A DNA stretch of 64,000 bases from Minisyncoccota bacterium (GCA_028718785.1 JAQULB010000004.1:2525-66524); one strand, 5' to 3'; positions 18,077 to 54,671 are shown, numbered from the stretch's first letter. A program made the numbers and translations. The notes: a model not told the origin generated them from the letters alone.

Positions 18077-18124
18077 AAAAAACGTAGTCATCCGTGCCGA
18101 TCGGCAAACTTTTGACACGTTTTT
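18077..18124. repeat. Short variant of the GC-rich long-hairpin element (copies at 53586-53666 and 54592-54671)
   Basis: AAAAAACGTAGTCATCCGTGCCGA-TCGGCAAACTTTTGACACGTTTTT matches the two ends of the 80-bp element. It lacks the central ~32 bp. Confidence 0.6.
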
Positions 18125-18138
18125 AGGAAGTAAGTCCT

Positions 18139-18236
18139 TTACTCCTGCTCGTTGTTGGTAAATTGGCAAATGTCGCGGAAGTCACAGAACTGGCAGTGAA
18201 AGCCCGGGGTGGCCTTAAAGTTGCTTTTATATATTT
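18139..18236 (-). pseudogene. Orphan duplicate of the last 30 codons (plus stop) of the helicase-nuclease gene
   Basis: By my base-by-base comparison there are 10 mismatches in 98 nt against 19990-20087. It reads KSNFKATPGFHCQFCDFRDICQFTNNEQE*, against ...FKDIC... in the intact gene. Confidence 0.8.
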
Positions 18237-18271
18237 ACTTAAATCTAACTTTTTTGGCTGAATTTGGCAAT
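18231..18271. repeat. Direct repeat S2 (partner is S1 at 18015-18054)
   Basis: See S1. It directly follows the helicase 3'-end remnant. Confidence 0.6.
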
Positions 18272-18355
18272 TTTTTCGTAGTAAAAGAAAAGGCCTACTG
18301 GTACGATGGAACAAATGTTTTGTTACCCATGTATCTCATCTCATACATATTAAAG

Positions 18356-18387
18356 ATATAGGCATCGCGTTTTTGCGATGCCTATAT
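18356..18387. terminator. Strong hairpin immediately after the radical-SAM stop codon
   Basis: ATATAGGCATCGC-gttttt-GCGATGCCTATAT has a 13-bp perfect stem. The flanking T-runs are weak. Confidence 0.4.
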
Positions 18388-18389
18388 TG

Positions 18390-19904
18390 TTAAATACTCT
18401 CTAAGCACGCTTCTTTTTTTGTTAAATCTTCTATGGTAAGGGGTTCGCCCTTATAGCTATCAAACGGTCTTTGGATATATGGTCCCCCGAAATGGGGAAT
18501 GCCGTCCATTATAACTTGATAGGGGTCTCCCACCTGCATATTTCCCAACCAAGCAATAAGTCGACAGTAAGCTGTGTCTGTAAAAATGCTAACCCTCAAT
18601 CCCGAACTTCCAAGGGCATGCTTTAAGCTATAGATAACGCGAAAGGCCTTCTTTTTCGCTGTGTAAGCATCTCTCTCTGTCATACTATTAAGTTTTCTTA
18701 CGAAATGCTTTGTATCATAGCTATTTAAATCGAAATCCACGATCTCGTCATTAGAAATGGATTTGAAATAATCTTCTGTGCCAGGAAAAGCAACGAGATT
18801 GAATGGCGTTATTAAATCAAAGTTATCCTCCATCAACTTTGCTTCCGTTATAATAGCTTCAACTGTTTGATTCGGCCAACCGATTATCCAGCCAGCATCC
18901 ACCTTAATTCTATACTTATGAAACTCCGAAACTAATCTTTGGTATTTATCGGGGTTGTTTTGATTTTTATTCGCTCCTTTCAGGTTGACTAAATCAAAAG
19001 ATTCAACGCCTAAAAAGACCTGCTTTATTCCAGCTAAAGCCAAATCTCGAATATCCGATAATCTGATGGCTGTATCTACTTGAGCAAAAATCTTTAGTTT
19101 TTTATTCAATCGTTCATTGAGCTTTATTAGCCCCCATACCAAATGGTGATAGTTTGGAGAACGCTTGAAGTTATCATCTAAAATCATTATTGGTAGACCA
19201 AGTTTATGGGTTTTTTCAATCCATTCAATTACTCCCTCTACATTTCTTGCTCTACTTAAACACATCTCTCTGCCTCGTAAAGTCGTTACGCAACAAAAAG
19301 AACATTTAAATGGGCAACCTTCACAAGTATCAATTCCTGCCATTGAATTTAAACCGTGTTTATATTTCTCGTCAACAATATCTGGAACTGTGGGAAAAGG
19401 CGCTTTGTTTAAATCCACAAAAGACCTTTGCCAATATAAAATCCTTAGCGAATCGCTTACAAAATCATCAATGATTTTTGGTGTGGTTTCCTCTCCTTCA
19501 CCAATGTTAAAAGAAATGCCCTCCCTATTTAGTAAATTATAAACTTTCCAATCTGCAAGGGTAACGCCAGCGCCCCCAATAATTACCTTGGTACCCGATT
19601 TTATAAATTGGCGAGCAATGTCAATAGCTCGAGGCAGTTCAAAAGTTTTTGCGCTAATAAAAACTATTTTATCTACAAAGTTTTTATTGATAATAATACT
19701 TTGAATATATCCATCGCCCCTTTCTAATCTTTCGTTAACGCAAAATACATCAATTTCTACACCTAATTTTTTTGCCGTTGTATTAATTAATCCCTTCATC
19801 ACGCCAAAAATAGGCGGAATCATCAAAACCAAAGAAAACTGAGATACTAACCCCCTATTGTTATAAGAACTTGGAGAAATAATCCAAATACCAAACTTTT
19901 TCAT
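18390..19904 (-). CDS. B12-binding-domain radical SAM protein (class B)
   Basis: CEGCPFKCSFCCV contains CxxxCxxC. The N-terminal Rossmann-like region resembles the cobalamin-binding domain of class B radical SAM enzymes. Confidence 0.85.
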   Translation of the reverse strand: MKKFGIWIISPSSYNNRGLVSQFSLVLMIPPIFGVMKGLINTTAKKLGVEIDVFCVNERLERGDGYIQSIIINKNFVDKIVFISAKTFELPRAIDIARQFIKSGTKVIIGGAGVTLADWKVYNLLNREGISFNIGEGEETTPKIIDDFVSDSLRILYWQRSFVDLNKAPFPTVPDIVDEKYKHGLNSMAGIDTCEGCPFKCSFCCVTTLRGREMCLSRARNVEGVIEWIEKTHKLGLPIMILDDNFKRSPNYHHLVWGLIKLNERLNKKLKIFAQVDTAIRLSDIRDLALAGIKQVFLGVESFDLVNLKGANKNQNNPDKYQRLVSEFHKYRIKVDAGWIIGWPNQTVEAIITEAKLMEDNFDLITPFNLVAFPGTEDYFKSISNDEIVDFDLNSYDTKHFVRKLNSMTERDAYTAKKKAFRVIYSLKHALGSSGLRVSIFTDTAYCRLIAWLGNMQVGDPYQVIMDGIPHFGGPYIQRPFDSYKGEPLTIEDLTKKEACLESI

Positions 19905-19989
19905 TTTAGACCTCCCTATGTTGTCTATTCTTATTTTTAATTTTTAATGGACAATCTTAATTTACTACTTAAAAAAAGTTTTAACAAGC

Positions 19990-22900
19990 TTATTCCTGTT
20001 CGTTGTTGGTAAATTGGCAGATATCTTTGAAATCGCAGAACTGGCAGTGAAAACCCGGGGTGGCCTTAAAGTTGCTTTTATATATTTTTTCAATTGTTTG
20101 GATAATTTCATCTTTTAATTTTTGTTTTTCTTGCTCTGTGCCCAAAAAGCTTATTTTTTCTCCGCTTTCTAAATAATAGTAAGCCAATTCAACTGGATTT
20201 AATTTTAGGTTTTCTTCTGTTGCTATTTGATAAAGCAAAAGCTGGGTCTTATCATCCTTTTCTAATTTATCTTTCTTTTTTCCAGTTTTGTAATCGATAA
20301 GACACACGCCCCCGCCCGCATCGCTACGCGAGCAAGCACTCGCTTGCGAAGCGTTGCGGGCAGGCCCATTAACTTCATCAATGCGGTCAATTTTTCCAAT
20401 CAAGGTGTATTTACCCGCTTTTAAGCGAAAACTTACCTCTAAAGCCAGTTTATCGTTTATTTTTAAAATTTTAGGAGGATTTTTTACAAAATCATCATAA
20501 AAGTTTTTTAAAATCTCTTTGCCTAATTTTTTGTATTCCTCTTTTTGGGCTTTGCTTTCATACCACTCTCCTATCCAATTCTTTTCATAAATCCCCGCCA
20601 AATCCTCAAAACCCGCGGCAACCCGGTTGCCGTGGGTTTCAAAGGCAAAGAGGGATTCTTGGGTTTTGTCGGCTGTTTGGAAATAACTACGCAAGAAATC
20701 ATCTAATGTTTTATGCAAGGTTTTACCAAACGAGAAACTGGCCTTTCCTTTAATGGGTATTTTTAAGATGTGGGCTAATTTGTATTGATAGGGGCATTTA
20801 TTAAAAGCTGTTAATTGGGTGTATGAAAAATGGTCGGGAATAGACCATTTTTCAATATTTAACTCTATGGGTTCTTTGGCTGGCTCGTCTATTTGCTGGG
20901 CTTGTTTTCCTTTGCTTTTTGGCAAGGGTTTTTGGGCCAAGCCAAGCTCCACTAAGAAAAGCGAGGGTTTTTTGCTGGTTTTACCCCCGTAATTTGAGGC
21001 CGAGGTTAAAAATAAACCCTGCTTGGCTCTGGTCATGGCCACATAAAAAAGCCGGCGTTCTTCTTGCAAATGAATATCCCCCTCCCCGGCTTGTTCTTTA
21101 ACAAGCGGTTCTGGAATTTCAATGGCATCTTTTCTTTCAATTGAAGGAAACCGCTTATCAACCATACTAACCACGAAAACATATTTAAATTCTAAGCCCT
21201 TAGCTGAGTGAACAGTCATTATTTTGATTGTGTCAGGGCCTTGGTCAATATCAAACTCCATTTTACCTTGCTCTCCGCTTTCAATTTCCAAAGTTAATTG
21301 GGCTAAAAAATTTTTTAGCGATGGATCAATTGACGCTTCTTTAAAACCCTGTATTTTTTTGTAAAACTGACTCAAAAAATCAATTTCCAGCAATTTATCT
21401 TTTTCAACCAAATATTTTAAAAAGCCCGAGTTATTTAAAAAAGCTACAAAAATTTCCCCAACTGATTTGGTTTTTGCCATTTCAGTATGGCGGGTTATTA
21501 AAGAAAGTAAAAAGGTAATTTTATTTAAAGTTTCGTGAGTTATGCCTTTTACAACTGAAATCTTAGACAATGTTTCATAAACCGACTGAGAGCGCTTGTG
21601 GCTTTCTTGAGTGATAAGCATTATGTCTTTAATATCTATACTTAAAAATGGTAAAGACAAAACTCGATAAAGCGCTAAACTTTCGTGGTAATTATCTAAT
21701 AGTTTTAAATAAGAAATAACATCTAAAATAATTGGCTTTTGAAAAAGCCCCCGCGAGGCCAAAAATTGATATTGTAATCCAGCCCTGTCTAAAGCCAAAG
21801 CAAACGGCACAGCTGAATCATTGGCTCTTACTAAAATTGCAAAATCGCTAAGCTTGGTGTCTGGTTCTTTTTCTAAAATTAAAACAATAGTGTTAGCTGT
21901 CTCTTTGGCTTCTTCGTTAAGCGATTTAAAATGCAAATATTTAACAAAACTTGGCTGTGATTTTTGAGCTTGAAGTTTTTTGTCTATTTTGGAAATAAAC
22001 TCCAATCTATTGGGATTGTTGGCTTGGATAAATTTGTATGACAAATCCAAAACCTCTTGCCCAGACCTATAATTTTTAACTAAACAAATTTCTTTGGCTT
22101 GTGGAAAATCCCGCTTAAACTGTTTTATATTGCTAACTGATGCGCCCCTCCATTTATAGATTGAATTATGAACAACAATTCCATTAGCAAAAAAATTATG
22201 AGTTTTATCAACCTCTAAATCATAAACTGCAATATTTTTATTTTCCTCTTTAATCTCGACAATCTCATCGTAAATAATTTCTCGACCTTGCCTAACAGGT
22301 AAATAATGGCCTAAAACTAAATTTTTAGCTGGTATAACTATTGCGGGGTAACTTCTGGGTCGATCGCTATCCTTCAAAGGATGTTGCAACGCTATATTAA
22401 ATTTTGTTTCCACAATTCCTTCTGTTAAATTTTCGAGTTGCTTGGCTATTTTGCCAATTTCTTGAAAATCCACATTTTCAATTCTAAGCTTCATACCGTT
22501 TTTGGCCTTTAAAAGATTGTATTTTGCTTTTTTTAGCTTCTCTATCGTTGCTTTATCTGAAGTTTCTAAACTTAGAACATGCTTTATAGCAGGGTTAAGT
22601 AAAAATTGTTTTTCTTTTTTTCTAATAATATCTCTGCTACGATAATTTCGGTGGCACATTCTTATATTAATTTTAATTCTCACCTTATTACCCCTATTAA
22701 CGGCATCAAGGGCAAAATGATGAGCGCTTAAATCAATATTTAAATCTTGGGATAGCCGAGCAATATTTTTATCCACTGTTAAATCTCGATAAAGTTTAGA
22801 CAGTAATTCATCTTTAATAACTATATTCTTGCGAACCTGAAAACAGCTGGTTGGTATGCCATACTTTAACGACCATAATGTTTCGTGATATCGTGCTTCT

Positions 22901-24090
22901 ATTTCAGTATTAAACGCCTTAATTGCTAAAATTTTATCAGCTGAACGCTCTAATCTTATTCTAATAATTAATGCATTGGTTACTCCTATCCTCCAGCCAA
23001 TGTCTTGCCTGTGCATTAAATAAACATAGTAAAATTTTTTACTATTATGAGTTTGGGGCACGAAACAAAACATTTTATGGTTATCTGTAGTTTGAACTTC
23101 AAAACCTTTTTTTGTTTTGATAGTTATTAGCATTGCTTGCTTCTTTTTTTTCGAAACTTTAAGTACTTTTGAAACCCCAATGTGCCCCTTACCCACAGCA
23201 GTTAAAACTTCATCACCCACCTTTATGTTCTTAATTGATTTTTTACCTTGAAATGTAGAAACTAAAACATCACCAGGAAGACACTGGTCATCGTCGGCTG
23301 TAACTGTTAAGTTATTTTTTGGCTGGGCTAATAGTTTTATAAGTTCGTATTGGGCTTTGTTTGTGTCTTGAAATTCATCAAGCAAAATATATTTAAATTT
23401 TTCTCTGTATTTTTGCAAAATAGCTGGCCGTTTCTGGAACAATTGCAAACAATAGTTTATTAAATCGCCAAAATCCAAAAAATTATTTTCTAATAATAAT
23501 TGCTGGTAGGCGTGATAGGCCTGAGCCACCTCCCCCACTCTGACCTCTTCACTATCCTCTATTAACTCATCTAATGATGTTTTTAATGAATCCGCATAAT
23601 CTAAATATTCTTTTGGGTAAATCATTTGATCTTTGCATTTTGAAAAATGGTCAAGCAAGGCCCTGATAAACTTATTGGGATTACCCAATGGTTTGTAATA
23701 TTTTAAGTTAAGGTTTTCTAAATTTTGTCGCATTAAAAGCCAGGCGCCCGTTTGATCTAAAAGTTTAAAATCAGGCAGGCCAATATCCAAACCATTTTCT
23801 TTTAAAATTCGCTCAGCAAAACTATGAAAAGTGGAAACCCAAATATCGCTATAGCCAAAATCCATTTCCCTGTCCACCCGCTCTTCCATTTCTAAAGCCG
23901 CTTTTTCGGTGAAAGTTAAAGCCAAAATTTCCTCGGGCTTAGCTAACTCTTTTTCTATTAAATAAGCAATGCGATCGGTGATAACTCGAGTTTTTCCCGT
24001 GCCAGCTCCCGCCACAATTAAAAGCGGGCCATCTTGATGCATAACCGCCTGTTTTTGTTCTGGGTTTAGTTTTTGCAAATCAACTACCAT
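19990..24090 (-). CDS. UvrD/PcrA-type helicase fused to a C-terminal Cas4-like PD-(D/E)XK nuclease; interrupted by an intein
   Basis: Walker A is AGAGTGKT, with DEFQDT and then TADDDQ|intein|SIYKWRGA (motif III). The C-terminal part has GKIDRID...IDYKTG and a 4-Cys set (KCPY...HCQFCDFKDIC). Confidence 0.9.
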   Translation of the reverse strand: MVVDLQKLNPEQKQAVMHQDGPLLIVAGAGTGKTRVITDRIAYLIEKELAKPEEILALTFTEKAALEMEERVDREMDFGYSDIWVSTFHSFAERILKENGLDIGLPDFKLLDQTGAWLLMRQNLENLNLKYYKPLGNPNKFIRALLDHFSKCKDQMIYPKEYLDYADSLKTSLDELIEDSEEVRVGEVAQAYHAYQQLLLENNFLDFGDLINYCLQLFQKRPAILQKYREKFKYILLDEFQDTNKAQYELIKLLAQPKNNLTVTADDDQCLPGDVLVSTFQGKKSIKNIKVGDEVLTAVGKGHIGVSKVLKVSKKKKQAMLITIKTKKGFEVQTTDNHKMFCFVPQTHNSKKFYYVYLMHRQDIGWRIGVTNALIIRIRLERSADKILAIKAFNTEIEARYHETLWSLKYGIPTSCFQVRKNIVIKDELLSKLYRDLTVDKNIARLSQDLNIDLSAHHFALDAVNRGNKVRIKINIRMCHRNYRSRDIIRKKEKQFLLNPAIKHVLSLETSDKATIEKLKKAKYNLLKAKNGMKLRIENVDFQEIGKIAKQLENLTEGIVETKFNIALQHPLKDSDRPRSYPAIVIPAKNLVLGHYLPVRQGREIIYDEIVEIKEENKNIAVYDLEVDKTHNFFANGIVVHNSIYKWRGASVSNIKQFKRDFPQAKEICLVKNYRSGQEVLDLSYKFIQANNPNRLEFISKIDKKLQAQKSQPSFVKYLHFKSLNEEAKETANTIVLILEKEPDTKLSDFAILVRANDSAVPFALALDRAGLQYQFLASRGLFQKPIILDVISYLKLLDNYHESLALYRVLSLPFLSIDIKDIMLITQESHKRSQSVYETLSKISVVKGITHETLNKITFLLSLITRHTEMAKTKSVGEIFVAFLNNSGFLKYLVEKDKLLEIDFLSQFYKKIQGFKEASIDPSLKNFLAQLTLEIESGEQGKMEFDIDQGPDTIKIMTVHSAKGLEFKYVFVVSMVDKRFPSIERKDAIEIPEPLVKEQAGEGDIHLQEERRLFYVAMTRAKQGLFLTSASNYGGKTSKKPSLFLVELGLAQKPLPKSKGKQAQQIDEPAKEPIELNIEKWSIPDHFSYTQLTAFNKCPYQYKLAHILKIPIKGKASFSFGKTLHKTLDDFLRSYFQTADKTQESLFAFETHGNRVAAGFEDLAGIYEKNWIGEWYESKAQKEEYKKLGKEILKNFYDDFVKNPPKILKINDKLALEVSFRLKAGKYTLIGKIDRIDEVNGPARNASQASACSRSDAGGGVCLIDYKTGKKKDKLEKDDKTQLLLYQIATEENLKLNPVELAYYYLESGEKISFLGTEQEKQKLKDEIIQTIEKIYKSNFKATPGFHCQFCDFKDICQFTNNEQE
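20305..20367. repeat. GC-rich palindromic insertion, in frame inside the helicase nuclease domain
   Basis: The sequence is CCCCCGCCCGCA-TCGCTACGC-GAGCAAGCactcGCTTGC..-TGCGGGCAGGCCC. It reads NGPARNASQASACSRSDAGGG, between the GKIDRID and IDYK motifs. Confidence 0.65.
20611..20641. repeat. REP-like palindrome AAACCCG-CGGCAACCCGGTTGCCG-TGGGTTT inside the helicase ORF
   Basis: The same 17-nt core, CGGCAACCCGGTTGCCG, occurs at 35931-35947 and 36162-36178. Here it is read as HGNRVAAGF. Confidence 0.7.
22165..23283 (-). other. Intein (373 aa) in helicase motif III, with a GIY-YIG-like central domain
   Basis: The N-terminal junction is DDDQ|CLPGDVLV, block B is TTDNH, and the C-terminal junction is HNFFANGIVVHN|S. 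Both boundaries were checked at nucleotide level (TGT at 23283-23281, AAT at 22167-22165). Confidence 0.85.
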
Positions 24091-24321
24091 ATCTTTATGG
24101 CAATTATGCCATTAAGCAAGTTTTGTTGCAATGAAAAACCCTCTTATTCTATAAATGTAGAAAGAGGGTCCATATAAGGGAGGTTAATAACCACCCATTA
24201 TCTACTGTGTTATCTTTAACACAGTAGGAAAAAATTTAGCTCCACAAGAAGAGCGAGATGACGCGGGGTAGTACCCCGCAAAACAACAACCACAACGATT
24301 TTTAAAAGAAGATTACTCTTT

Positions 24322-24371
24322 CTTGCGGAGCGGTTTAAGGAAAATTACTTTTCCCCAAAACGCTCCGCAAG
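24322..24371. repeat. Long hairpin H1 (paralogue of H2)
   Basis: CTTGCGGAGCG-[28 nt, itself self-complementary around GGAAAATTACTTTTCC]-CGCTCCGCAAG. Confidence 0.55.
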
Positions 24372-24454
24372 AATTTAATGCTGGTTTAAATATATCAAAC
24401 TTTAAAAATTTCGTCAAGCTTTTTGCGCAAAATAAAAAACTTTTGTAAAAGAAA

Positions 24455-24661: not shown

Positions 24662-24707
24662 TATGGAGCGCTTTGGAGAAAATTATTTTTCCCCAAGGCG
24701 CTCCATA
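24662..24707. repeat. Long hairpin H2 (paralogue of H1)
   Basis: TATGGAGCGC-[..GGAGAAAATTATTTTTCCCC..]-GCGCTCCATA. The basal stem differs from H1 on both arms in a compensatory way. Confidence 0.55.
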
Positions 24708-30041: not shown

Positions 30042-30046
30042 ATTCT

Positions 30047-35415: not shown

Positions 35416-36147
35416 CTACCCAGAGGCCGGGCCTCTGGATGTTTTTTCCTTATATTGCACCCAATTATCAACAAAATCCTTACACGATTTTTCTCCGCCC
35501 ATAATTTCTGATAAAAATGCTCGTTCTGTTACTGATGGAAAATTTTTCTTTCCCAAATAGTCCTGATAGCTTGACCATTTATAATTTTCTAAAAATTCAA
35601 TAACTTTTTCAATGTTTCTAATCCCATTTTCTTTCCACCCCGGCTCGATTAAAGCAATAGGATTAGTATGAATATAAACAAAAACTGTTTTTAGTTGTTC
35701 GTCATTTTCTATGCGCACCGCCCTAAACCTACCTTGAAAAAAGTATCCTTTATTTTGCAATTGATATTTTTCTTTAAAATAAGAGGCATAACCTGCGCCT
35801 AATTTTTGCATAAATCTACTAATTCCATTATCTTGAACTTGTCGTAAAAGTAAATGCAAATGATTGGGCATGAGGCAAAAAGCTAAGACATCAACAAACC
35901 CATCTCGCTTATCCGGCTCTTCAGCAAATACGGCAACCCGGTTGCCGTATTTTTTCTTGTTTTTCCACTGTCTTCTTTCCTCCCTCCTCCTTCGAATTTC
36001 TACAAAATTTGAATTATTAAATTCGTAAATTGAAAAAATACCCCTGTATTGATCGTTTACATCTTGGAAAAGTAAGCTGTCTCCTATCCTCCTAACAGTA
36101 ACGTGGTAAATCTCCATATTCTCAAGTTGTTCTTTTCTTTTTGGCAT
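35416..36147 (-). CDS. HUH (Y1) transposase of the IS200 / REP-associated (RAYT) type
   Basis: YHVTVRR, LMPNHLHLLL (HUH) and FVYIHTNP (catalytic Tyr motif) are present. The gene is flanked and interrupted by the GGCAACC palindrome. Confidence 0.75.
   Translation of the reverse strand: MPKRKEQLENMEIYHVTVRRIGDSLLFQDVNDQYRGIFSIYEFNNSNFVEIRRRREERRQWKNKKKYGNRVAVFAEEPDKRDGFVDVLAFCLMPNHLHLLLRQVQDNGISRFMQKLGAGYASYFKEKYQLQNKGYFFQGRFRAVRIENDEQLKTVFVYIHTNPIALIEPGWKENGIRNIEKVIEFLENYKWSSYQDYLGKKNFPSVTERAFLSEIMGGEKSCKDFVDNWVQYKEKTSRGPASG
35421..35439. repeat. GC-rich palindrome CCAGAGGCC-G-GGCCTCTGG at the 3' end of the transposase ORF
   Basis: Read directly from the sequence. It encodes the C-terminal tail TSRGPASG and is followed on the plus strand by a T-run. 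Confidence 0.5.
35927..35951. repeat. REP-like palindrome AATACGGCAACCCGGTTGCCGTATT inside the transposase ORF
   Basis: 25-bp perfect palindrome, read as YGNRVAVF. Confidence 0.7.
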
Positions 36148-36159: not shown

Positions 36160-36180
36160 TACGGCAACCCGGTTGCCGTA
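36160..36180. repeat. REP-like palindrome TACGGCAACCCGGTTGCCGTA, about 12 nt upstream of the transposase start
   Basis: 21-bp perfect palindrome in the transposase/rarA intergenic spacer. Confidence 0.7.
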
Positions 36181-46429: not shown

Positions 46430-49345
46430 ATGCCTCAAAACCAAAATATTGATAAATCCTTCAACAGAACTCAAGATAAACTGCCTCCTCAAAACATACC
46501 AGCGGAAAAATCGCTTTTGGGCTGTTTGATGATTGACCAAGACGCTATTTATAAAGTAGCGGATTTTTTGCAAATAAAGGACTTTTACAAACCAACACAC
46601 CAAATTATTTTTGAGTCCATTATTGAGCTTTTTACCAAAAGAGAACCCGTTGATTTGTTAAGCGTTTCCTCAAAACTCTCAGAATACCAAAAGCTTGAAG
46701 AAACCGGCGGAGCCAGCTACTTAACCGATCTTATCAACACCGTTCCCACAGCCAGCAATGTTTTACACTATGCCAAAATAATTCAAGACAAACGAGTTTT
46801 AAGAGATTTAATTTCTGCTGGTTATGATATTAGCAATTTAGCGCTTCAAGAAGCCGAATCCATTGATATTTTGTTAGACAAAGCAGAAAAAAGAATTTTT
46901 TCCATTGCCCAAAAATCGCTTTCTCAGTCATTCACTCATGTAAAAGATACTTTAGAAGACACTTGGAAAAGAATTGAAGAACTATCAAAACAAAAAGGCA
47001 GCTTGCGAGGCATACCCACTGGATTTCGCGATTTAGACAATATGTTAGCTGGTTTACAGCGCTCTGATTTGGTTATTTTAGCTGCAAGGCCAAGTTTGGG
47101 AAAATGCGTGAGCAAAGACACGGAAATTGTTATGTCAAATCCGGGTGGCGTTTGCACAATAGAAGAGCTTGTTAATAACCAAAAAAGAGAGGTTTTGGGA
47201 TTAGATAGCAATCTAAAAGTTAAACCTCAGTTAGTAAGTGATTTTATCAACAATGGCGTCCAGCCAGTTTTTCGGGTTGAAACTGCGTCTGGTAGAGAAA
47301 TAGAAACCACCATTACTCACCCCTTTTTAACTATTAATGGCTGGACGCCATTAGAAAATATTCGTATCGGCGTAAAAGTAGCTGTCCCCAGAATTATTCC
47401 AGTATTTGGGTGTCAAACTATGTCTGATTGGAAAATTAAATGTCTATCTTATTTTATTGCCGAAGGTGGACTAACTAATAGAAGTCCAAGGTTCACCAGC
47501 GCAAATCCAAAAATTCTGCAGGATTTTGCAGAAAGCGTTAAAATGTTTCCAAATATTAAAATCTCTATAAATAAATCCTCTACTAATAAAAATGAAAAGA
47601 ATATAACCTATCAAGTTGCAAGGGCCAATAAAACGCCTGTTTTGGCTAAAAAAGTATTTGGAGAAAAAATAAAAAAATTAGCAAGAAAATCTAATTTAAC
47701 TCAAAAAGAGCTGGCGAAAAAAACAAGTTTATGCTATCAAAGTATTTCTTATTTTTTGAATGGACATCGTTTGCCGTCAAAAACCCATTTTGCGGTTATT
47801 TTAAACCAGCTTAAAACAACTCAAAACGAAAGAGAAAACTTGACCAACGAATATCAAACACTCTTAAATGAAAATTCTGTCACTAAATGGCTGGAAAGTT
47901 TAGGGTTAATGGGTAAGCTTGCCACTGAAAAATTTATTCCTCGCGAAGTGTTTCACTTAAAGAAAAAAGATTTGTCTTTATTTTTCAATCATCTTTTTGC
48001 TTGCGATGGAAGTTTTTGGCAGAGCAAAAAAGACCTAAAGTACCACCTTTCTTACGCATCAAGCTCAAAAAAAATGATTAGGCAAATTCAACATTTGCTC
48101 TTACGTTTTGGAATAATGGGCACTGTGCGAGAAAAAAGAATCAAAATTAATAACAAAATAAAAATAGCTTACGAATTAGAGGCCCATAATGCTCAAAACC
48201 TTTTAAAATTTATTGATGAGATTGGAATCTATGGAAAAGAAATCAAGCTTCAAAAGGCAAAAAACGAAATCATTAAAACAAAGATCGGTTGGACTCAAGA
48301 CACGCTACCGATTGAAGTATGGAATAAAATAAAAAAGCTTAAAGGAAATAAAAGCTGGGCATCTATTTATACGGCTATGGGTTTGCCACATACACACAAT
48401 ATCCACGCCTTTAAACGCTCTCCCCGCAGAGAAACAATTGAAAGGTTAGCAAAAGCTTTAAACTCTCAGGAATTAAAAGACATTGCCCAAAGCGATATTT
48501 ACTGGGATAGAATAGTTGGTATAAAATATTTGGGTAAAAAACAAGTTTACGATTTAACAGTGCCAAAAATCCACAATTTTATAGCCAATGATTTCTTTGT
48601 TCATAATTCGGCTTTGGCTGTTGATATTGCTAAAAATGTGGCTTGTAAATATAAAATGCCAGTTGGCATATTTAGCTTGGAAATGAGCAAAGACCAAATT
48701 GTTGACCGTTTAATCTCCGCTCAAGCTGATGTTGATTTATGGCGTTTGCGAACTGGAAAACTATCCGACCAAGGCCCAAACAATGATTTTGAAAGAATCC
48801 AAAAAGCCATGGCCGAATTAGCTGACGCCCCTCTCTATATTGACGATGTTTCAAGCAGTAATGTTATTCAAATGCGAGCTATGGCCAGGCGATTAGCAAT
48901 GGACAAAGGCTTGGGGCTTTTAATCATTGACTATTTGCAGTTAATGGAGGGTAGAGGCAACACTGATAATGTTGTTCAGCAAGTTAGCGAAAACTCAAGA
49001 GCTTTAAAATCAATCGCTAAAGAATTAAACATACCAGTTTTGGTTTTAAGCCAGCTTTCCAGAGCTGTGGAGCATAGAATGCCACCCGTGCCTCGTCTTT
49101 CGGACTTGCGTGATTCGGGCGCGGTCGAGCAGGACGCCGATGTGGTTATGTTTATTTACAGGGAGGATCGCTATAAGCCCAACACAGAAAGAAAAAATGT
49201 GGCTGAAATTATCATTGCCAAGCACCGAAACGGGCCAGTTGGCAAAGTTGAACTATATTTTGATGAAACCCGTGTTACATTCCGGGATATGGAAAAAGGC
49301 GCCTACCAAGGAGCTGACACTGAAGAGGAAGAAAGCATTATTTAA
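46430..49345 (+). CDS. dnaB: Replicative DNA helicase DnaB, interrupted by an intein in the P-loop
   Basis: The N-terminal domain has PQNIPAEKSLLGCL. The P-loop junction is AARPSLGK|intein|SALAVDIAKN. SLEMS, IDYLQL, LSQLSR and DLRDSGAVEQDADVV follow. Confidence 0.93.
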   Translation: MPQNQNIDKSFNRTQDKLPPQNIPAEKSLLGCLMIDQDAIYKVADFLQIKDFYKPTHQIIFESIIELFTKREPVDLLSVSSKLSEYQKLEETGGASYLTDLINTVPTASNVLHYAKIIQDKRVLRDLISAGYDISNLALQEAESIDILLDKAEKRIFSIAQKSLSQSFTHVKDTLEDTWKRIEELSKQKGSLRGIPTGFRDLDNMLAGLQRSDLVILAARPSLGKCVSKDTEIVMSNPGGVCTIEELVNNQKREVLGLDSNLKVKPQLVSDFINNGVQPVFRVETASGREIETTITHPFLTINGWTPLENIRIGVKVAVPRIIPVFGCQTMSDWKIKCLSYFIAEGGLTNRSPRFTSANPKILQDFAESVKMFPNIKISINKSSTNKNEKNITYQVARANKTPVLAKKVFGEKIKKLARKSNLTQKELAKKTSLCYQSISYFLNGHRLPSKTHFAVILNQLKTTQNERENLTNEYQTLLNENSVTKWLESLGLMGKLATEKFIPREVFHLKKKDLSLFFNHLFACDGSFWQSKKDLKYHLSYASSSKKMIRQIQHLLLRFGIMGTVREKRIKINNKIKIAYELEAHNAQNLLKFIDEIGIYGKEIKLQKAKNEIIKTKIGWTQDTLPIEVWNKIKKLKGNKSWASIYTAMGLPHTHNIHAFKRSPRRETIERLAKALNSQELKDIAQSDIYWDRIVGIKYLGKKQVYDLTVPKIHNFIANDFFVHNSALAVDIAKNVACKYKMPVGIFSLEMSKDQIVDRLISAQADVDLWRLRTGKLSDQGPNNDFERIQKAMAELADAPLYIDDVSSSNVIQMRAMARRLAMDKGLGLLIIDYLQLMEGRGNTDNVVQQVSENSRALKSIAKELNIPVLVLSQLSRAVEHRMPPVPRLSDLRDSGAVEQDADVVMFIYREDRYKPNTERKNVAEIIIAKHRNGPVGKVELYFDETRVTFRDMEKGAYQGADTEEEESII
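47105..48607 (+). other. Intein (501 aa) with a LAGLIDADG endonuclease and an embedded XRE-type HTH
   Basis: The junctions are GK|CVSKDTEIV and NFIANDFFVHN|S. The LAGLIDADG motifs are LSYFIAEGG and LFACDGSF. The HTH is LTQKELAKKTSLCYQSISYFLNGHRLPS. Both boundaries were checked at nucleotide level. Confidence 0.88.
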
Positions 49346-50070: not shown

Positions 50071-50073
50071 AGA

Positions 50074-50229: not shown

Positions 50230-50251
50230 TCCACATTCCTTAATCAAAAAC

Positions 50252-50280: not shown

Positions 50281-50316
50281 ACTTTATTTATTTCGTCTAA
50301 AATTACTTTTTATAAC

Positions 50317-50362
50317 AAAAAACTACACTTTCTGTCCCATAGTTCAAAAAGTGTAGTTTTTT
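50317..50362. terminator. Bidirectional terminator-like hairpin downstream of rplU
   Basis: AAAAAACTACACTT-[18 nt]-AAGTGTAGTTTTTT. Confidence 0.5.
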
Positions 50363-50393
50363 GTTTGAAATGTTCTATGTTCTATGGCCTATG

Positions 50394-50729
50394 TTATGCG
50401 ACTTTCGTAATTTCCACCTCGGTAAATTGCTGGCGGTGGCCTTTTTTCACGCTCACCCGCTTTTTTGCTTTATACCTCAAAGCAATAACCTTGTCGGCCT
50501 TGCCTTGGTTTAAAACCTTGCCAACTACCTTGACGCCTTCAACCAATGGAGCGCCAATTACTACTTGGCTCGCCGAAGCTTTAGCGGAGGTGGCGCCTTC
50601 CTTAACGGTAAGCAAAACTTGGTCAAAAATAACTTCTTTGCCAACCTCAGCTTCTAATTTCTCTATTTTTAATTTTTGGCCGGGAGATACAACATATTGT
50701 TTGCCTCCGGTTTTTATAACTGCTAACAT
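50394..50729 (-). CDS. rplU: 50S ribosomal protein L21
   Basis: MLAVIKTGGKQYVVSPGQKLKIEKL is the canonical L21 N-terminus. Confidence 0.92.
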   Translation of the reverse strand: MLAVIKTGGKQYVVSPGQKLKIEKLEAEVGKEVIFDQVLLTVKEGATSAKASASQVVIGAPLVEGVKVVGKVLNQGKADKVIALRYKAKKRVSVKKGHRQQFTEVEITKVA

Positions 50730-50871
50730 AATTTTTAAATTTTTAATTTTGTAATTTTTAAATAATTTTTAATTTCTTAATGTTTAAAAATTCAAAAATT
50801 AATATTTATTTATAAAATTAAAAATTGGAAATTAAAAATTCCAATATATGCATACTTTACACTAATTCGCT

Positions 50872-51966: not shown

Positions 51967-51977
51967 ATGTAATATAA

Positions 51978-52053
51978 TGGCGGCCTTACGGGGAATCGAA
52001 CCCCGGTTACTTGATTGAGAATCAAGTGTCCTGGGCCACTAGACGATAAGGCC
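51978..52053 (-). tRNA. tRNA-Glu (anticodon CUC), CCA encoded
   Basis: Folded by hand. The acceptor is GGCCUUA/UAAGGCC, with the D region GUCUAGUGG...AGGAC. The anticodon arm is CUUGA-UUCUCAA-UCAAG, the T arm GGGGUUCGAUUCCCC, and the 3' end is GCCA. Confidence 0.9.
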
Positions 52054-52112
52054 GTCGGGTAAGCCACTAAACTTATTCTATCAAAAATATCAATCAAAAC
52101 AAGTAAAAACGG

Positions 52113-52156
52113 TGGGTTGGTTGATGCCTCTCTGGACATCTTTAACCTCCACCGTT
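52113..52156. terminator. Bidirectional terminator-like hairpin upstream of tRNA-Glu
   Basis: AAAACGGTGGGTT...AACCTCCACCGTTTTTT, with T-runs on both strands. Confidence 0.45.
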
Positions 52157-52173
52157 TTTTCGCAATCGCCACA

Positions 52174-52353
52174 CTAATCAGCAATTTGCGAATTTTCATC
52201 AAGGGGATAAATTTTTGGTTCACTCATAACTCCCCTTGTCTTTACTTTAATTTTTCGCCCACAATTTGGGCACTCTTCCTCCTTGCTTGAATGTGGATCA
52301 ATATAAACCCTAAAAGTATACTCCTTACAATCGCAAGGATATTCTATAGGCAT
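52174..52353 (-). CDS. Possible 59-aa zinc-ribbon protein
   Basis: Hand-found ORF MPIEYPCDCKEYTFRVYIDPHSSKEEECPNCGRKIKV... (CxC...CxxC). It falls one codon below the track cutoff. Confidence 0.4.
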   Translation of the reverse strand: MPIEYPCDCKEYTFRVYIDPHSSKEEECPNCGRKIKVKTRGVMSEPKIYPLDENSQIAD

Positions 52354-52431
52354 AACTAACCCCCTATATGTTATTACCTCACCAAAATTTTCTTAACCCT
52401 CAGCTTTTTTTAACCTCCTTTTGTTAATTAT

Positions 52432-52614
52432 CTATAAACCAATCGCTTCTGCGACAACATATTTACCCCCCACATAAACATAAGGCACACCATTTCTGAA
52501 TACCACATCAGCATTAGTCAATTGAATAGTCGTGGTATTGGAAGTGGTTTCCCCAACGCTACTCCCTTTATTTTTTTTCTTTCTTCTATTTTTTTTCTTT
52601 CTCTTTGATCCCAT
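52432..52614 (-). CDS. Hypothetical small protein with a highly basic N-terminus
   Basis: MGSKRKKKNRRKKKNKG..., with AAGGAG about 12 nt upstream. It is the first ORF after leader 1. Confidence 0.45.
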   Translation of the reverse strand: MGSKRKKKNRRKKKNKGSSVGETTSNTTTIQLTNADVVFRNGVPYVYVGGKYVVAEAIGL

Positions 52615-52679
52615 TCTTTAAATACTCCTTTTTTAATTTATTCTTAGTTAAATAAAATTTTTAAACAACTGCAAAAGCT

Positions 52680-52839
52680 AAAGCCCCCTTCCATAAATTA
52701 CGGAAGGGGGCTGGTTTGAAGTTTTAAAATTTAATTATTTTCAAATCTCAAACTAACTTCCTTCCCGGATTGGGAGCAAATAGTCCATTTAGTGGTGTAT
52801 TGGAAATTAGCTTGAGTCAACATTTTCTTATTTATTTAC
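52680..52839 (-). ncRNA. Candidate structured leader / sRNA 1 (homologous to leader 2)
   Basis: The 5' arm ACTCAAGCTAATTTCC (52817-52802) pairs with the 3' arm GGAAGTTAGTTTGAGAT (52761-52745), with G-U wobbles only on the minus strand. It ends in the terminator AGCCCCCTTCC-9nt-GGAAGGGGGCT (52680-52710). Confidence 0.4.
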
Positions 52840-52845
52840 ATTTCT

Positions 52846-52873
52846 ATAATAGCAAAATAAAAATTGTTGTCAA
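52846..52873 (-). promoter_or_regulatory. Near-consensus promoter TTGACA-16-TATTAT
   Basis: On the minus strand, the -35 is at 52873-52868, inside the upstream terminator stem, and the -10 is at 52851-52846. Confidence 0.5.
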
Positions 52874-52903
52874 TGGCAAAAGTGAAAACTTTTGCCATTG
52901 ACA
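52868..52903 (-). terminator. Intrinsic terminator of module 2
   Basis: TGTCAATGGCAAAAGT-gaaa-ACTTTTGCCATTGACA has a 16-bp perfect stem. A T-rich run follows on the minus strand. Confidence 0.7.
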
Positions 52904-52908
52904 TATTA

Positions 52909-53085
52909 CTATTTCGGCTCTTTCGCTGTTTTACCAACAACAACTACTCCACCTTCGCCAGTCGGAATTTTATCATCATATACTCCTTCAGGCGCTCCGA
53001 ATTCGTCTTTACCACGACTTTTTGCAATAATTTTATTTCTTTCACGAAGAAATTTTTCTGTATATAACATCCTTTTTTCAAACAT
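52909..53085 (-). CDS. Possible 58-aa protein
   Basis: Hand-found ORF MFEKRMLYTEKFLRERNKIIAKSRGKDEFGAPEGVYDDKIPTGEGGVVVVGKTAKEPK. GGGAGG lies 5 nt upstream and a terminator follows. Confidence 0.45.
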   Translation of the reverse strand: MFEKRMLYTEKFLRERNKIIAKSRGKDEFGAPEGVYDDKIPTGEGGVVVVGKTAKEPK

Positions 53086-53121
53086 TTTATCCTCCCATAA
53101 AATTATTTTAACAGTTAGCGA

Positions 53122-53265
53122 TCATTGAGCTAACACTTTAGAAATCTCCTCGTATAAATGGGGGCTGTTAGAGATAAAAAACACGAAACAACCACCCAAA
53201 ATAGTTGCTCTATAATTTACCTTATCTTTTTCCAGTATATCTTTTACCTGCCGAAAAACATGCAT
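53122..53265 (-). CDS. Possible 47-58-aa protein
   Basis: Hand-found ORF MHVFRQVKDILEKDKVNYRATILGGCFVFFISNSPHLYEEISKVLAQ. Upstream TTG/GTG starts extending to 53301 are possible. Confidence 0.35.
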   Translation of the reverse strand: MHVFRQVKDILEKDKVNYRATILGGCFVFFISNSPHLYEEISKVLAQ

Positions 53266-53320
53266 CTGTTGTTTTTCAACCAATAAAACCAAACTAATCA
53301 CCTCGCTTTTAATGTGCTAC

Positions 53321-53496
53321 AGAAACTAAAACCAGCCCTCTCAAAACGAGAGAAGCTGGTGTAAATTTTCTAAGATTTTCTTTTAATTCTTTTTATTTAG
53401 AAAACTCAAACTAACCTCCCTCAATGGGGCATAAAAGAAATAAAAGAAAAAGAAATTTCTTTTTGAGTTAGTTTGAATTAAACTTTTCATAATTAT
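53321..53496 (-). ncRNA. Candidate structured leader / sRNA 2 (homologous to leader 1)
   Basis: The 5' arm CAAACTAACTC (53475-53465) pairs with the 3' arm GAGGTTAGTTTGAG (53418-53405). It ends in the terminator CCAGCCCTCTC-aaaac-GAGAGAAGCTGG (53332-53359), with a T-run on the minus strand. Confidence 0.4.
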
Positions 53497-53502
53497 ATTT
53501 GA

Positions 53503-53531
53503 AGTATAAAAAATTACCCCCACAATGTCAA
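53503..53531 (-). promoter_or_regulatory. Near-consensus promoter TTGACA-17-TATACT
   Basis: On the minus strand, the -35 is at 53531-53526 and the -10 at 53508-53503. Confidence 0.5.
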
Positions 53532-53585
53532 GAGCTTCGTATTCAACATGCTAAAACCTATCAAAGCTTTCTAAAAAATACTCTT

Positions 53586-53666
53586 AAAAAGCGTATCAAA
53601 GTTGGCCGACTCGCCTTGCTGGAGCCTTCGGCGTAGCACAGGTCGGCACGGATTGATACGCTTTTT
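53586..53666. repeat. GC-rich ~80-bp long-hairpin element, copy X (inverted relative to copy Y)
   Basis: AAAAAGCGTATCAAAGTTGGCCGAC...GTCGGCACGGATTGATACGCTTTTT. By my alignment its reverse complement differs from 54592-54671 at 5 positions. Confidence 0.7.
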
Positions 53667-53779
53667 AACTTTTAACAAAATAAATTGCGTAATTTTATTA
53701 ATTGTTAAAACTGCGTATAAAAAAATCCCGTAAAAATTTTAACTAGCCATTAGCAAAAAAGTTAAAATTTTTTACAGAA

Positions 53780-53826
53780 TAAAAGAAAAAAGCGGGGGCT
53801 TTTACAATGTGGTGGTTGTAAAAGCC
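53780..53826 (-). terminator. Intrinsic terminator of the 158-aa gene
   Basis: GGCTTTTACAA-8nt-TTGTAAAAGCC is followed on the minus strand by CCCGCTTTTTTCTTTT. Confidence 0.65.
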
Positions 53827-53860
53827 ACGCCTTTGAGATGTTGCCTCTCCAGCTCCCGCT

Positions 53861-54337
53861 TTATATTGTATATCTAAGGCCAATTAGTTTTTTCTCGCCC
53901 TCAACTTTTATGGCCTCAAATATCGCTTTTTGCTCTTGGACGCAAACTTTTCCTATCACCGAAACCCCCTCAAAGCAGATAGCCCAAATGCCATCTTGGG
54001 GGCTATTAACATAAAGGGTTGCTGGTGATACATGAAATATTGTTTGGCCTGCTTTTCTCACAACAGCCTCTACAATATCTCCTGTATCCTCTGTTTCTTC
54101 CACTTCCACCCTTAGTCCAATTAAATTTCGTTGACCATCAACCATAATGATTTCAAATACAATCATTTCCTGGTTTATTTGGCTAACATAGATTTTTCCG
54201 GCTACTGAAACGCCCTCAAAAGAGATTTTCCAAACATCCTCCCCCATACTAACAACGCAAAGATTTGGATTCTCGGAAGATGTGTGGAATATTCTTGCGC
54301 CCGCCCGTCTCATAAGAACTGCTATAATATTTTTCAT
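53861..54337 (-). CDS. Hypothetical protein made of two tandem ~75-aa homologous domains
   Basis: AAGGAG lies upstream. The two halves align: IIAVLMRRAGARIFH..VWKISFEGVSVAGKIYV...LIGLRVEV against IVEAVVRKAGQTIFH..IWAICFEGVSVIGKVCV...LIGLRYTI. Confidence 0.6.
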   Translation of the reverse strand: MKNIIAVLMRRAGARIFHTSSENPNLCVVSMGEDVWKISFEGVSVAGKIYVSQINQEMIVFEIIMVDGQRNLIGLRVEVEETEDTGDIVEAVVRKAGQTIFHVSPATLYVNSPQDGIWAICFEGVSVIGKVCVQEQKAIFEAIKVEGEKKLIGLRYTI

Positions 54338-54399
54338 TTCTTATCTCCTTATACAATAGTTTTAGCGGATGTCGGACTTCCGCTACTTTTTTTAATGAA

Positions 54400-54555
54400 C
54401 GTAAATAAAAACCTCCCCATTGCTGGGGAGGCCTAAAGTTTTTAGTAATCTCTCTATTTTATAACACTAAAAACCTTCCCAGCTTGGGGCTCCGATAACA
54501 AAACCAACAATAAACCAAAAAGATTTTTTTGTGTTATTTCACTTTCCATAATTAT
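54400..54555 (-). ncRNA. Candidate structured leader / sRNA 3
   Basis: The 5' arm AAATAACACAAAAA (54539-54526) pairs with the 3' arm TTTTTAGTGTTATAAAA (54473-54457). It ends in CCTCCCCA-ttgc-TGGGGAGG (54412-54431), with TTTTTATTT on the minus strand. Confidence 0.35.
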
Positions 54556-54561
54556 AGCTTG

Positions 54562-54589
54562 ATTATAACCAAACAAAAAAATATGTCAA
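54562..54589 (-). promoter_or_regulatory. Consensus promoter TTGACA-16-TATAAT
   Basis: On the minus strand, the -35 is at 54589-54584 and the -10 at 54567-54562. Confidence 0.55.
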
Positions 54590-54591
54590 AT

Positions 54592-54671
54592 AAAAAGCGT
54601 GTCAATCCGTGCCGACCTGCGCTACGCCGGAGGCTCCAGCAAGGCGAATCGGCCAACTTTGATACGTTTTT
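54592..54671. repeat. GC-rich ~80-bp long-hairpin element, copy Y
   Basis: AAAAAGCGTGTCAATCCGTGCCGACCTGCGCTACGCCGGAGGCTCCAGCAAGGCGAATCGGCCAACTTTGATACGTTTTT. It lies about 100 bp downstream of the ftsI stop and could act as a bidirectional terminator. Confidence 0.7.

Follow-up and report, generated by a model that had tools for sequence, protein, structure and literature searches.

A candidate lineage-specific family of ~48-bp quasi-palindromic elements in Paceibacteria, with features of terminators and of a small dispersed repeat

The analysis of a 64,000-nt stretch of DNA (the window) from a Candidatus Paceibacterota MAG points, with moderate confidence, to a lineage-specific family of quasi-palindromic elements of ~48 bp in Paceibacteria, which would act as terminators, would be spread as a small dispersed repeat, and would include a longer form derived from the short one. 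The idealised element reads AAAAACCGTGTCAAAAGTTAGCCGA|TCGGCTAACTTTTGACACGGTTTTT. Its intergenic copies would be intrinsic transcription terminators; those retaining both the A-run and the T-run would terminate transcription in both directions, and the elements would insulate an upstream gene from a promoter located 0-60 nt further on. Moreover, judging from distribution and symmetry, 33 nt would have entered the palindrome precisely at its midpoint; the copy that follows ftsI (copy B) is the most likely place for this event, and the enlarged B would have been copied once, as a discrete 82-nt unit and in inverted orientation, to a position 923 nt away behind a 158-aa gene, creating copy A. The finding is a modest extension of known biology (REP, SPRITE, RPE) and calls for no new mechanism.

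The window contains two long copies of 82 nt, B (54591..54672, behind ftsI) and A (53586..53667, inverted with respect to B), and one short copy of 48 nt, C (18077..18124; AAAAAACGTAGTCATCCGTGCCGA|TCGGCAAACTTTTGACACGTTTTT), all three located without a strand. As originally predicted, A and B are imperfect palindromes of ~80 bp that are reverse complements of each other with five differences. In particular, A is identical to the reverse complement of B at 77 of 82 positions (94%), each difference is a transition, and the likeness ends sharply at the palindrome ends, beyond which the flanking DNA is unrelated; a BLAST E-value of ~1e-30 excludes a chance match. The boundaries proposed for A (AAAAAGCG...CGCTTTTT) are correct, and the one proposed for B deviates slightly from the actual end, ...ACGTTTTTTT. 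Copy C retains both arms of A and B, as had been claimed, and lacks exactly 33 nt at the apex rather than ~32 nt; the lacking segment corresponds to CCTGCGCTACGCCGGAGGCTCCAGCAAGGCGAA of the long form. It spans 54616..54648 in B (+ strand), at the exact centre of the palindrome GCCGA|TCGGC, and 53610..53642 in A (- strand), with three transitions between the two inserts. All three copies have in common the GCCGA/TCGGC apex and an asymmetric internal loop, ATCCGT / AACTTT.

Outside the window, five short copies are found at four further sites. A perfect 48-nt palindrome lies 7 nt past the ftsI stop codon in a relative (L004, 7466-7513), two intergenic copies are located on metagenome contigs (L009, 10184-10229; L010, 1875-1920), and two orthologous copies are carried in frame within tgt (L011, 9712-9758; L012, 6129-6165). 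A profile HMM built from these external copies only recovered C at E = 5e-13 and ranked the four arms of A and B as the next-best matches in the window; neither this model nor the other comparisons found a fourth copy within the 64 kb. The L009 copy has a core near-identical to that of C in a different gene context, and the changes between the L004 and L010 copies are symmetric and preserve the dyad. Because A, B and C share the asymmetric loop, and because related copies occupy non-orthologous sites in other genomes, they are, on the sequence evidence, homologous members of one family rather than independent look-alike terminators, which upholds the original prediction of a dispersed family.

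Only short-form sequences matching 22 bases of the right arm exactly could be picked up by the metagenome scan, so that the search itself partly accounts for the apparent conservation of that arm. In the 64-kb window there are three copies, two of them 1 kb apart, and relatives carry zero to one copy per 2-21 kb; ~190 kb of related DNA added no copies apart from those at ftsI and tgt. None of four patterns matched IMG/VR: two were cores of the short form, one was its right arm and the fourth was a 22-mer overlapping the long-form one described below. The element was also not found in PLSDB plasmids or INPHARED phages. Rfam searches yielded no match at A, B or C at the gathering threshold across the whole window, nor on A or B at an E-value threshold between 52000 and 54800. 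Covariation across eight copies showed no excess over shuffles, in an alignment whose register shifts in the left arm.

The original prediction had described full-length copies and an internally deleted one, a direction that is most likely backwards. The 33-nt insert splits an otherwise perfect GCCGATCGGC palindrome (GCCGA|TCGGC) exactly at its centre, so the long form is one short unit with 33 unrelated nucleotides at its apex and not two inverted short units. A 22-mer from the long-form centre had no real match among 185,579 species-representative GTDB genomes, which apparently do not include the source genome, the sole match being a chance coding match in a 66% GC betaproteobacterial MAG; translations of the long form in three frames had no match among called proteins. 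A search of the window and of 18 loci turned up nothing similar to the insert. Taken with the five external short copies, the unmatched long-form centre and the split palindrome suggest that the 48-nt palindrome is most likely the basic unit and the 82-nt form a local derivative carrying a 33-nt insertion at the centre of symmetry.

The three window copies, none of which is intragenic, lie downstream of ftsI, the 158-aa gene and a helicase remnant, as was initially reported. Copy B is situated 104 nt downstream of the stop (54776) of ftsI, a PBP2-type transpeptidase gene on the - strand (54776..56449) that forms the transcription unit upstream of B, and 2 nt past B begins a sigma-70-type consensus promoter (TTGACA-16-TATAAT, 54562..54589, - strand, 12/12) that serves a Leu-rich small ORF and the 158-aa gene. 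The latter (53861..54337, - strand), which is bracketed by A and B, has an internal duplication and no family match. Copy A follows 194 nt past its stop; on one side of it is the gene's own terminator-like hairpin, on the other the promoter that belongs to the next small-ORF module. Copy C is located 15 nt past the stop of a 98-nt duplicated remnant of a helicase 3' end, upstream of a methyltransferase gene (17228-17920).

Across the family, the intergenic elements are found 7-194 nt past stop codons and shortly before promoters, and their predicted structures are stable. A and B fold into long imperfect hairpins of -31 to -41 kcal/mol (A, -40.8/-37.7; B, -33.5/-31.4; C, -17.5/-15.2 kcal/mol), with z = -2.5 to -5.4 against dinucleotide shuffles. 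On the transcribed (-) strand, five to seven T follow the hairpin in A, B, C and the L004, L009 and L010 copies; the T-tract ends are ...GACACGCTTTTTA in B, where the hairpin is followed by TTTTT, ...GATACGCTTTTTA in A and ...ACTACGTTTTTTA in C. In the two intragenic tgt copies the T-run is broken (TTTGT). The two stem changes that distinguish B from A form G-U pairs on the + strand and A-C mismatches on the transcribed - strand. A simple terminator scan left A, B and C unflagged because it demands gapless stems and theirs are bulged. Overall, the location of the elements, the stability of their hairpins and their T-runs are what one would expect of intrinsic terminators that are partly bidirectional, and it is from these features that we infer termination; A would be superfluous in that role where it stands, since the gene in front of it has its own terminator-like hairpin. 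If the elements do act in this way, they would mark the ends of transcription units in organisms for which there is no transcriptomics.

The proximity to promoters also allows the palindrome to be read as the operator of a dimeric regulator, or as another DNA-level site upstream of promoters, with the hairpin being incidental. Such a site could account for a 40-50-bp palindrome whose core is conserved across genomes, for the strong promoters 0-60 nt downstream of it in B, A, L004 and L009, for the TTGACA within its arms, and for the dyad that the symmetric L004/L010 changes preserve. We consider it very improbable, however, as the element is far longer than usual operators, its flanking A/T runs are terminator-like, one copy lies inside tgt and no candidate regulator emerged; moreover, the 33-nt insert at the dyad centre would place three helical turns between the half-sites, yet it was kept and copied.

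Comparisons between species bear on the history of the family. The ftsI site is filled in two species (the window and L004) and empty in five (L002, L015, L016, L017 and L006). The closest sampled relative of each filled species is among the empty ones (L002 for the window, L015 for L004; FtsI identity 87%), and at the ftsI site of L015 the sequence runs TAA-CGAG-TTTTTATTTGACA, with an identical promoter and the hairpin absent. L006 and L017 likewise have no counterpart of A: at the corresponding site the promoter directly adjoins the terminator. The insertion polymorphism among strains that the original prediction proposed to test has a counterpart here in presence/absence variation between species. 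On the other hand, L004, whose FtsI is 82% identical to that of the window, has its short copy at the position orthologous to B, with TTTTTATTTGACA right after the hairpin in both. Because this copy has the same position and the same downstream promoter, B is, judged by this comparison, at least partly an old cis element. As to whether copies in relatives sit only at orthologous sites, a matter raised at the outset, non-orthologous copies were found, whereas B does have its ortholog in L004.

There is a modest chance that the copies are ordinary vertically inherited terminators. In that case B and C would be long-standing cis elements at their own genes, A would have arisen from B by a single local duplication or gene conversion, and common constraints or ancient descent, with no mobility, would account for the likeness between loci. 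The L004 ortholog of B speaks for this, as do the tgt copy that is orthologous between L011 and L012, the low numbers (three copies in 64 kb, with just the ftsI and tgt copies added by ~190 kb of related DNA), and the lack of a transposase matching the element's ends; a single old element lost precisely on two occasions would also produce the observed pattern of filled and empty ftsI sites. It sits less well with the near-identical cores of C and L009, which include the non-functional-looking asymmetric loop in differing contexts, with a copy within a coding region, with the empty ftsI sites in L002 and L015, the nearest sampled relatives of the filled species, and with the addition of A, as a sharply bounded unit, where L006 and L017 have an empty site. 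Based on the non-orthologous sites and the presence or absence of copies among related species, the family behaves as a small dispersed repeat, in keeping with the favoured explanation. With a conserved set of terminator-shaped palindromes gained and lost between species, and also present in frame within the gene of a housekeeping enzyme, small palindromic repeats would help to define gene boundaries and protein loops in CPR genomes as well.

The arrangement of A and B, whose 82-nt inverted repeats bracket 923 nt with one gene and its promoter, raises the question of whether they delimit, as terminal inverted repeats, a small composite transposon or an invertible cassette that contains the 158-aa gene. 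The Logan contig of the same strain, an independent assembly, ends inside A, as a cassette could explain; such a break is expected, though, at any repeat longer than the assembler's word size, and the elements may account for assembly breaks of this kind. The 158-aa gene carries no transposase or recombinase signature. In L006 and L017, which do not have the hairpins, it keeps its syntenic place behind ftsI, along with the same leader and the same terminator downstream (the 158-aa protein is 43% identical to a 148-aa ORF of L006). Further, L004 has the ortholog of B and is without the 158-aa gene. Since the gene is syntenic in relatives where the hairpins are absent, it is a resident and not transposon cargo, which makes the cassette scarcely credible. 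The gene was also considered as a RAYT or transposase lying amid its repeats, and was rejected for its lack of a Pfam or NCBIfam match and for the same synteny.

A transposase-like gene is found elsewhere in the window. The Pfam scan covered 48 ORFs: two short ones and every candidate gene of 100 aa or more as far as ftsI. Seven ORFs of that length beyond ftsI (56474-63974) fell outside it. Among the scanned ORFs, there was no recombinase and no transposase or IS with the ends of A, B and C; the only transposase-like match was a Y1 (HUH) RAYT-like gene at 35416-36147 (Y1_Tnp, PF01797; 45 bits against a cut-off of 23). The HUH (NHLHLL) and YIHTNP motifs of its product are intact, and its only NCBIfam match is the REP-associated tyrosine transposase model. 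The protein showed a marginal likeness to ISDra2 TnpA in PDB (E ~1), and a search for multiple copies of the gene found it on just one short Logan contig.

It appears quite unlikely that the elements form a REP/REPIN-type system, with single-strand hairpins copied by this Y1 transposase. Several features are REP-like: the elements are GC-rich imperfect palindromes in an AT-rich genome, with an extended hairpin in the long form; the Y1_Tnp protein encoded in the window matches a REP-associated model and has intact motifs; and small palindromes of this genome do enter coding regions in frame. In C and L009 the hairpin has the tetranucleotide GTAG at its 5' foot; a check for GT[AG]G found GTAT/GTGT in A and B, and GTGT in L004 and L010. 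In contrast to REP systems, the elements are sparse, typical REP densities being far higher than three copies in 64 kb, and the long form is no doublet. Moreover, the NCBIfam score of 49 bits falls under the curated cut-off of 80, and the palindrome that occurs both beside and within the Y1 gene is another one, TACGGCAACCGGGTTGCCGTA, not of the A/B/C type.

The label MITE/REPIN-like given in the original prediction is thus unearned, considering the three copies per 64 kb, the lack of a clear target-site duplication and of a matching transposase, and the other palindrome at the RAYT-like gene. Similar to MITEs, the elements are small and non-coding, form stable hairpins, have terminal inverted repeats and vary in presence between genomes; however, terminal inverted repeats do not discriminate a MITE here, because the whole element is palindromic. 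The size of 48 nt is at or below the usual lower limit of MITEs. No parent IS with the same ends was found among the 48 scanned window ORFs, and no unambiguous target-site duplication was seen at the copies. TTTTTA-like hexamers flank L004, B and C on both sides, where they overlap the element's own A/T runs, and are absent in A, L009 and L010.

Other known systems are similar in some respects. To our knowledge, the sequence of A, B and C is unrelated to the known class of stem-loop plus T-run repeats. Members of that class, as far as PMC10969869 presents them, are short dispersed intergenic repeats found after genes, whose entire sequence is a stem-loop and a T-run and which are plausibly both selfish and working terminators. 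The A/B/C family is likewise dispersed, intergenic and located behind genes; as set against the repeats that PMC10969869 presents, it has a different host phylum and a much lower copy number, forms a near-perfect palindrome flanked on either side by A- and T-runs, and has an apical-insertion variant. Like integron attC sites, the elements are imperfect palindromes that follow genes and whose variable apex sets their length; unlike attC, they have, by eye, no RYYYAAC/GTTRRRY boxes at the stem base, their orientations are mixed, and there is no integrase or array. The orientation of the copies and the missing integrase disfavour an attC reading, and an inspection by eye for attC/integron, parS, dif and common operator motifs gave no match.

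CPR/Patescibacteria have small genomes, in which repeats and mobile DNA are usually said to be scarce, and a literature search found no paper on palindromic repeats or MITEs in the CPR. We consider it doubtful that Paceibacteria, and perhaps the wider CPR, carry mobile GC-rich palindromes that are copied via single-strand hairpins by RAYT-like Y1 transposases and that land behind genes, where they would be co-opted as bidirectional terminators, and in frame in proteins, with the 33-nt insert as a nested event at a hairpin tip. If that were true, these ultra-small and supposedly repeat-poor genomes would have a system resembling RPE plus REP. A second palindrome family in the window, CGGCAACCGGGTTGCCG, is found in frame in a UvrD-like helicase and in the RAYT gene itself.

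Rickettsia palindromic elements (RPEs) are ~100-150 bp long, confined to Rickettsia and inserted in many genes. The A/B/C family resembles them in being both intergenic and in frame in a protein-coding gene; unlike for RPEs, tgt is the only host gene documented here, and its copy is common to orthologs. The tgt copies lie in a variable 30-aa loop that is missing from Zymomonas Tgt and from solved Tgt structures, and the loop reads ...LADRQTFDTF..., in which ADR corresponds to GCCGATCGG. As a further point of comparison with RPEs, the lengths of the 48-nt unit and of the 33-nt insert are divisible by three.

The window contains three GC-rich hairpins, at the positions given by the original prediction: two long copies of 82 nt, A (53586-53667) and B (54591-54672), and one 48-nt copy, C (18077-18124), with the same arms. 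A is inverted relative to B, and the predicted five differences between these reverse complements were recovered, all of them transitions (77 identities over 82 nt); identity ends exactly where the palindromes end. Both fold into long, imperfect hairpins well below shuffled sequences (-40.8 and -37.7 kcal/mol for the two strands of A, -33.5 and -31.4 kcal/mol for those of B). C shares with them an asymmetric internal loop (ATCCGT versus AACTTT) and the GCCGA/TCGGC apex; it keeps both ends, as described, and lacks exactly 33 nt (B 54616-54648, A 53610-53642) rather than about 32. Neither a pattern search nor nhmmer with filters off found further copies in the 64-kb window.

The window has a GC content of about 36% and most of its genes on the − strand; its FtsI is 100% identical to MDD5738855.1 of a Candidatus Paceibacterota (Pacebacteria) MAG, and a Logan contig assembled from SRR22315506 matches 3.5 kb of the window at 100% identity and terminates within A. 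All three elements do lie downstream of transcription units. In particular, B lies 104 nt past the ftsI stop codon, with a promoter matching the consensus at 12/12 positions directly 3′ of it on the − strand; A lies 194 nt past a 158-aa gene, distal to that gene's own terminator-like hairpin, and the next promoter is about 55 nt beyond. Two copies of the final 98 nt of a UvrD/PD-(D/E)XK helicase gene are present (18139-18236 versus 19990-20087, 90% identity); C sits 15 nt past the stop codon of the 18139-18236 duplicate and so marks where the helicase gene formerly ended. The two helicase ends are separated by a B12-binding-type radical-SAM gene (18390-19904), which looks like an insertion into the 3′ terminus of the helicase gene that brought a substitute end with it. 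Also duplicated is a promoter-like 48-mer (~18243-18290 and 18012-18060).

Comparison with the ftsI regions of relatives (68-87% FtsI identity) revealed both filled and empty sites within a gene order, mraZ-rsmH-ftsL-ftsI-(small ORFs)-rmuC-rplU, that is kept in all relatives reaching far enough. L004 (82% identity) has, 7 nt past the ftsI stop, a perfect palindrome of 48 nt, AAAAACCGTGTCAAAATTTAGCCGATCGGCTAAATTTTGACACGGTTTTT; because it occupies the same place and is followed by the same TTTTTATTTGACA as B, it is a short-form ortholog of B. The site lacks the element in five other species (L015, L002, L016, L017 and L006), including the closest sampled relatives of L004 (L015, 87%) and of the window (L002, 87%). 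In L015, it reads TAA-CGAG-TTTTTATTTGACA, keeping the promoter of L004 and no more than a few bases of the hairpin foot. The ~190 nt holding A are missing at the equivalent site in L006 and L017, where a terminator abuts the promoter after the homolog of the 158-aa gene. A metagenome scan with GCCGATCGGCNAAMTTTTGACACG, the sequence common to C and L004, yielded three loci: an intergenic copy (L009) whose core, asymmetric arm included, is nearly identical to C, with unrelated genes on either side and a promoter just beyond; a near-perfect palindrome (L010); and a copy within a tgt ORF (L011). L011 shares synteny with L012 and L013, two loci from the MAGs that also supplied L004 and L005, and it is therefore probably part of the window's clade. 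An HMM built from external copies only recovers C first (E = 5e-13), and the four A and B arms are then its best hits in the window. This is a real family, with members in related genomes.

Compared with solved Tgt structures, the L011 protein carries 30 extra residues (103-132), and all aligned CPR Tgts have a variable loop at this point. The loop includes LADRQTFDTF in L011 and L012 and LADRHGLTHF in P0125; the ADR[QH] of the closest CPR sequences is GCCGATCGG in frame, and hand back-translation of the P0125 protein suggests the other type of arm there, TCGGCACGGATTGACAC, which A and B have. The tgt DNA of L011 and L012 keeps the palindrome, with TTTGT replacing the T-run, and L013 has a different, CGATCG-centred palindrome at the same place. 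The family can thus reside in frame within a protein loop, as do Rickettsia palindromic elements (RPEs). The tgt copy is not recent, because it is common to orthologs. Across Paceibacteria, the variable loop (L013 10001-11194 and the alignment) has recurring xDR motifs and CGATCG-centred palindromes of differing sequence. This points to selection for a hairpin within the gene or to palindromic elements having replaced the site repeatedly. The family's moderate interest comes mainly from its CPR host genome and the in-frame tgt copy.

Judged by sequence, the elements fit intrinsic terminators that would insulate one unit from the next: they follow a stop codon and precede the next promoter, their hairpins are stable, and every intergenic copy has 5-7 T on the transcribed side, a run that is broken in both intragenic copies. 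A, B, C and L004 are potentially bidirectional terminators, because they have A-runs on the opposite side, which L009 and L010 lack. A seems superfluous where it is, given the terminator-like hairpin that the 158-aa gene already has, and two stem substitutions in B weaken its transcribed-strand hairpin. Covariation over eight copies was uninformative.

C had been taken for an internally deleted copy; the short form is more likely ancestral and the long form derived. Outside the window, five short copies occupy four further sites. For the long form, a 22-mer from its centre, searched in 185,579 species-representative genomes, gave a lone match, in GC-rich coding sequence and put down to chance; another 22-mer that overlaps it gave none in IMG/VR, the whole long element none in plasmids or phages, and its translated frames none among called proteins, metagenomes having been scanned with the C/L004 sequence. 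Moreover, the 33-nt insert splits a perfect decamer, GCCGATCGGC, at its exact centre; a search for its donor found none. In the simplest history, a short hairpin would have stood behind ftsI, gained 33 nt at its apex, and then been copied, inverted, as an 82-nt unit to a new site 923 nt off. The 82-nt variant is best read as private to this genome.

Near-identical cores at non-orthologous sites, filled and empty sites among closely related species, one copy in a coding region, and the A/B duplication with its sharp unit boundaries all argue for some copying process. The evidence speaks against a classical MITE: copy density is low, no IS with the same ends was found, and target-site duplication is not clear, since TTTTTA, present on each side, overlaps A/T runs that belong to the element. 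A and B were also considered as the boundaries of a cassette with the 158-aa gene as its cargo; this was rejected, because L006 and L017 have the gene in synteny but neither A nor B. A Pfam scan, covering every candidate gene up to ftsI with 100 aa or more and two short ORFs (seven ORFs of at least 100 aa past ftsI, 56474-63974, lay outside it), identified one relevant gene (35416-36147, −). Its 243-aa Y1 (IS200-like) protein has intact HUH and Tyr (YIHTNP) motifs, and its only NCBIfam hit, below cut-off, is the REP-associated tyrosine transposase (RAYT) model. A second, perfect palindrome, TACGGCAACCGGGTTGCCGTA, lies upstream of this gene (36160-36180) and interrupts it in frame (35926-35952), encoding KYGNRVAVF; a third copy of its core, CGGCAACCGGGTTGCCG, is in frame within the UvrD-like helicase ORF (20616-20632; HGNRVAAG). 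The genome therefore holds a REP/RAYT-like pairing, but with this second palindrome family; its sole link to A, B and C is the GTAG that C and L009 have at the hairpin foot. A further hairpin, CCAGAGGCCCGGCCTCTGG, followed by GTAG, overlaps the Y1 stop codon. The A/B/C family is best read as a low-copy, terminator-shaped palindromic repeat, closest in function to SPRITE-type elements and sharing one trait each with RPE and REP.

Repeated − strand modules (54390-54590, 53330-53535 and ~52680-52875), also found in L002, L004, L006 and L015-L017, precede each small gene from ftsI to rmuC and combine a consensus promoter with a small, near-leaderless ORF and a terminator hairpin. The small ORFs include a Leu-rich one (M..QKNLFGLLLVLL..PQAGKVF) and a Phe-rich one (..NSKRNFFFFYFFYAP.REVSLSFL). 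The Leu-rich peptide is kept across the six examined species, with synonymous variation in its Leu codons; CCCCAAGCTGGGAAGGTTTTT is invariant, the terminator has three compensatory pairs among five aligned sequences, and Rfam Phe_leader gives full-length, sub-threshold matches (36.8 and 26.7 bits). The modules resemble leader-peptide attenuators, here in a CPR bacterium. The 158-aa gene (53861-54337, −) encodes a conserved protein of 148-158 aa (also L006 4608-5054, L017 6770-7246) that has no family match and consists of two homologous halves of ~75 aa each; a conserved structured segment, AGCGGGAG...GCCCCCGC, is always 3′ of the gene. A perfect palindrome with a 16-bp stem (52868-52903, TGTCAATGGCAAAAGT-GAAA-ACTTTTGCCATTGACA) has the words TGTCAA, AAAAGT and GCC in common with the A/B/C family, in different order, and the TTGACA downstream of it forms the -35 element of a promoter (11/12). 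A related pair of long hairpins (24320-24373 and 24662-24707, CTTGCGGAGCG...CGCTCCGCAAG; 75% alike, 338 nt apart) provides a second example of local hairpin duplication; it lies within ~690 nt without ORFs of at least 100 aa, between the helicase and a V-type ATPase operon. Inteins occur in the UvrD-like helicase (19990-24090, −) and in DnaB (46430-49345, +); the DnaB intein has a LAGLIDADG domain and is present in L002 and L017 and absent in L004 and L006. Finally, a LOOT RNA (RF03000) match at 5676-5790 (+), scoring 77 bits, well over the gathering score, adjoins primase-like (DUF5906, CHC2 zinc-finger) genes, a setting that points to an integrated element.
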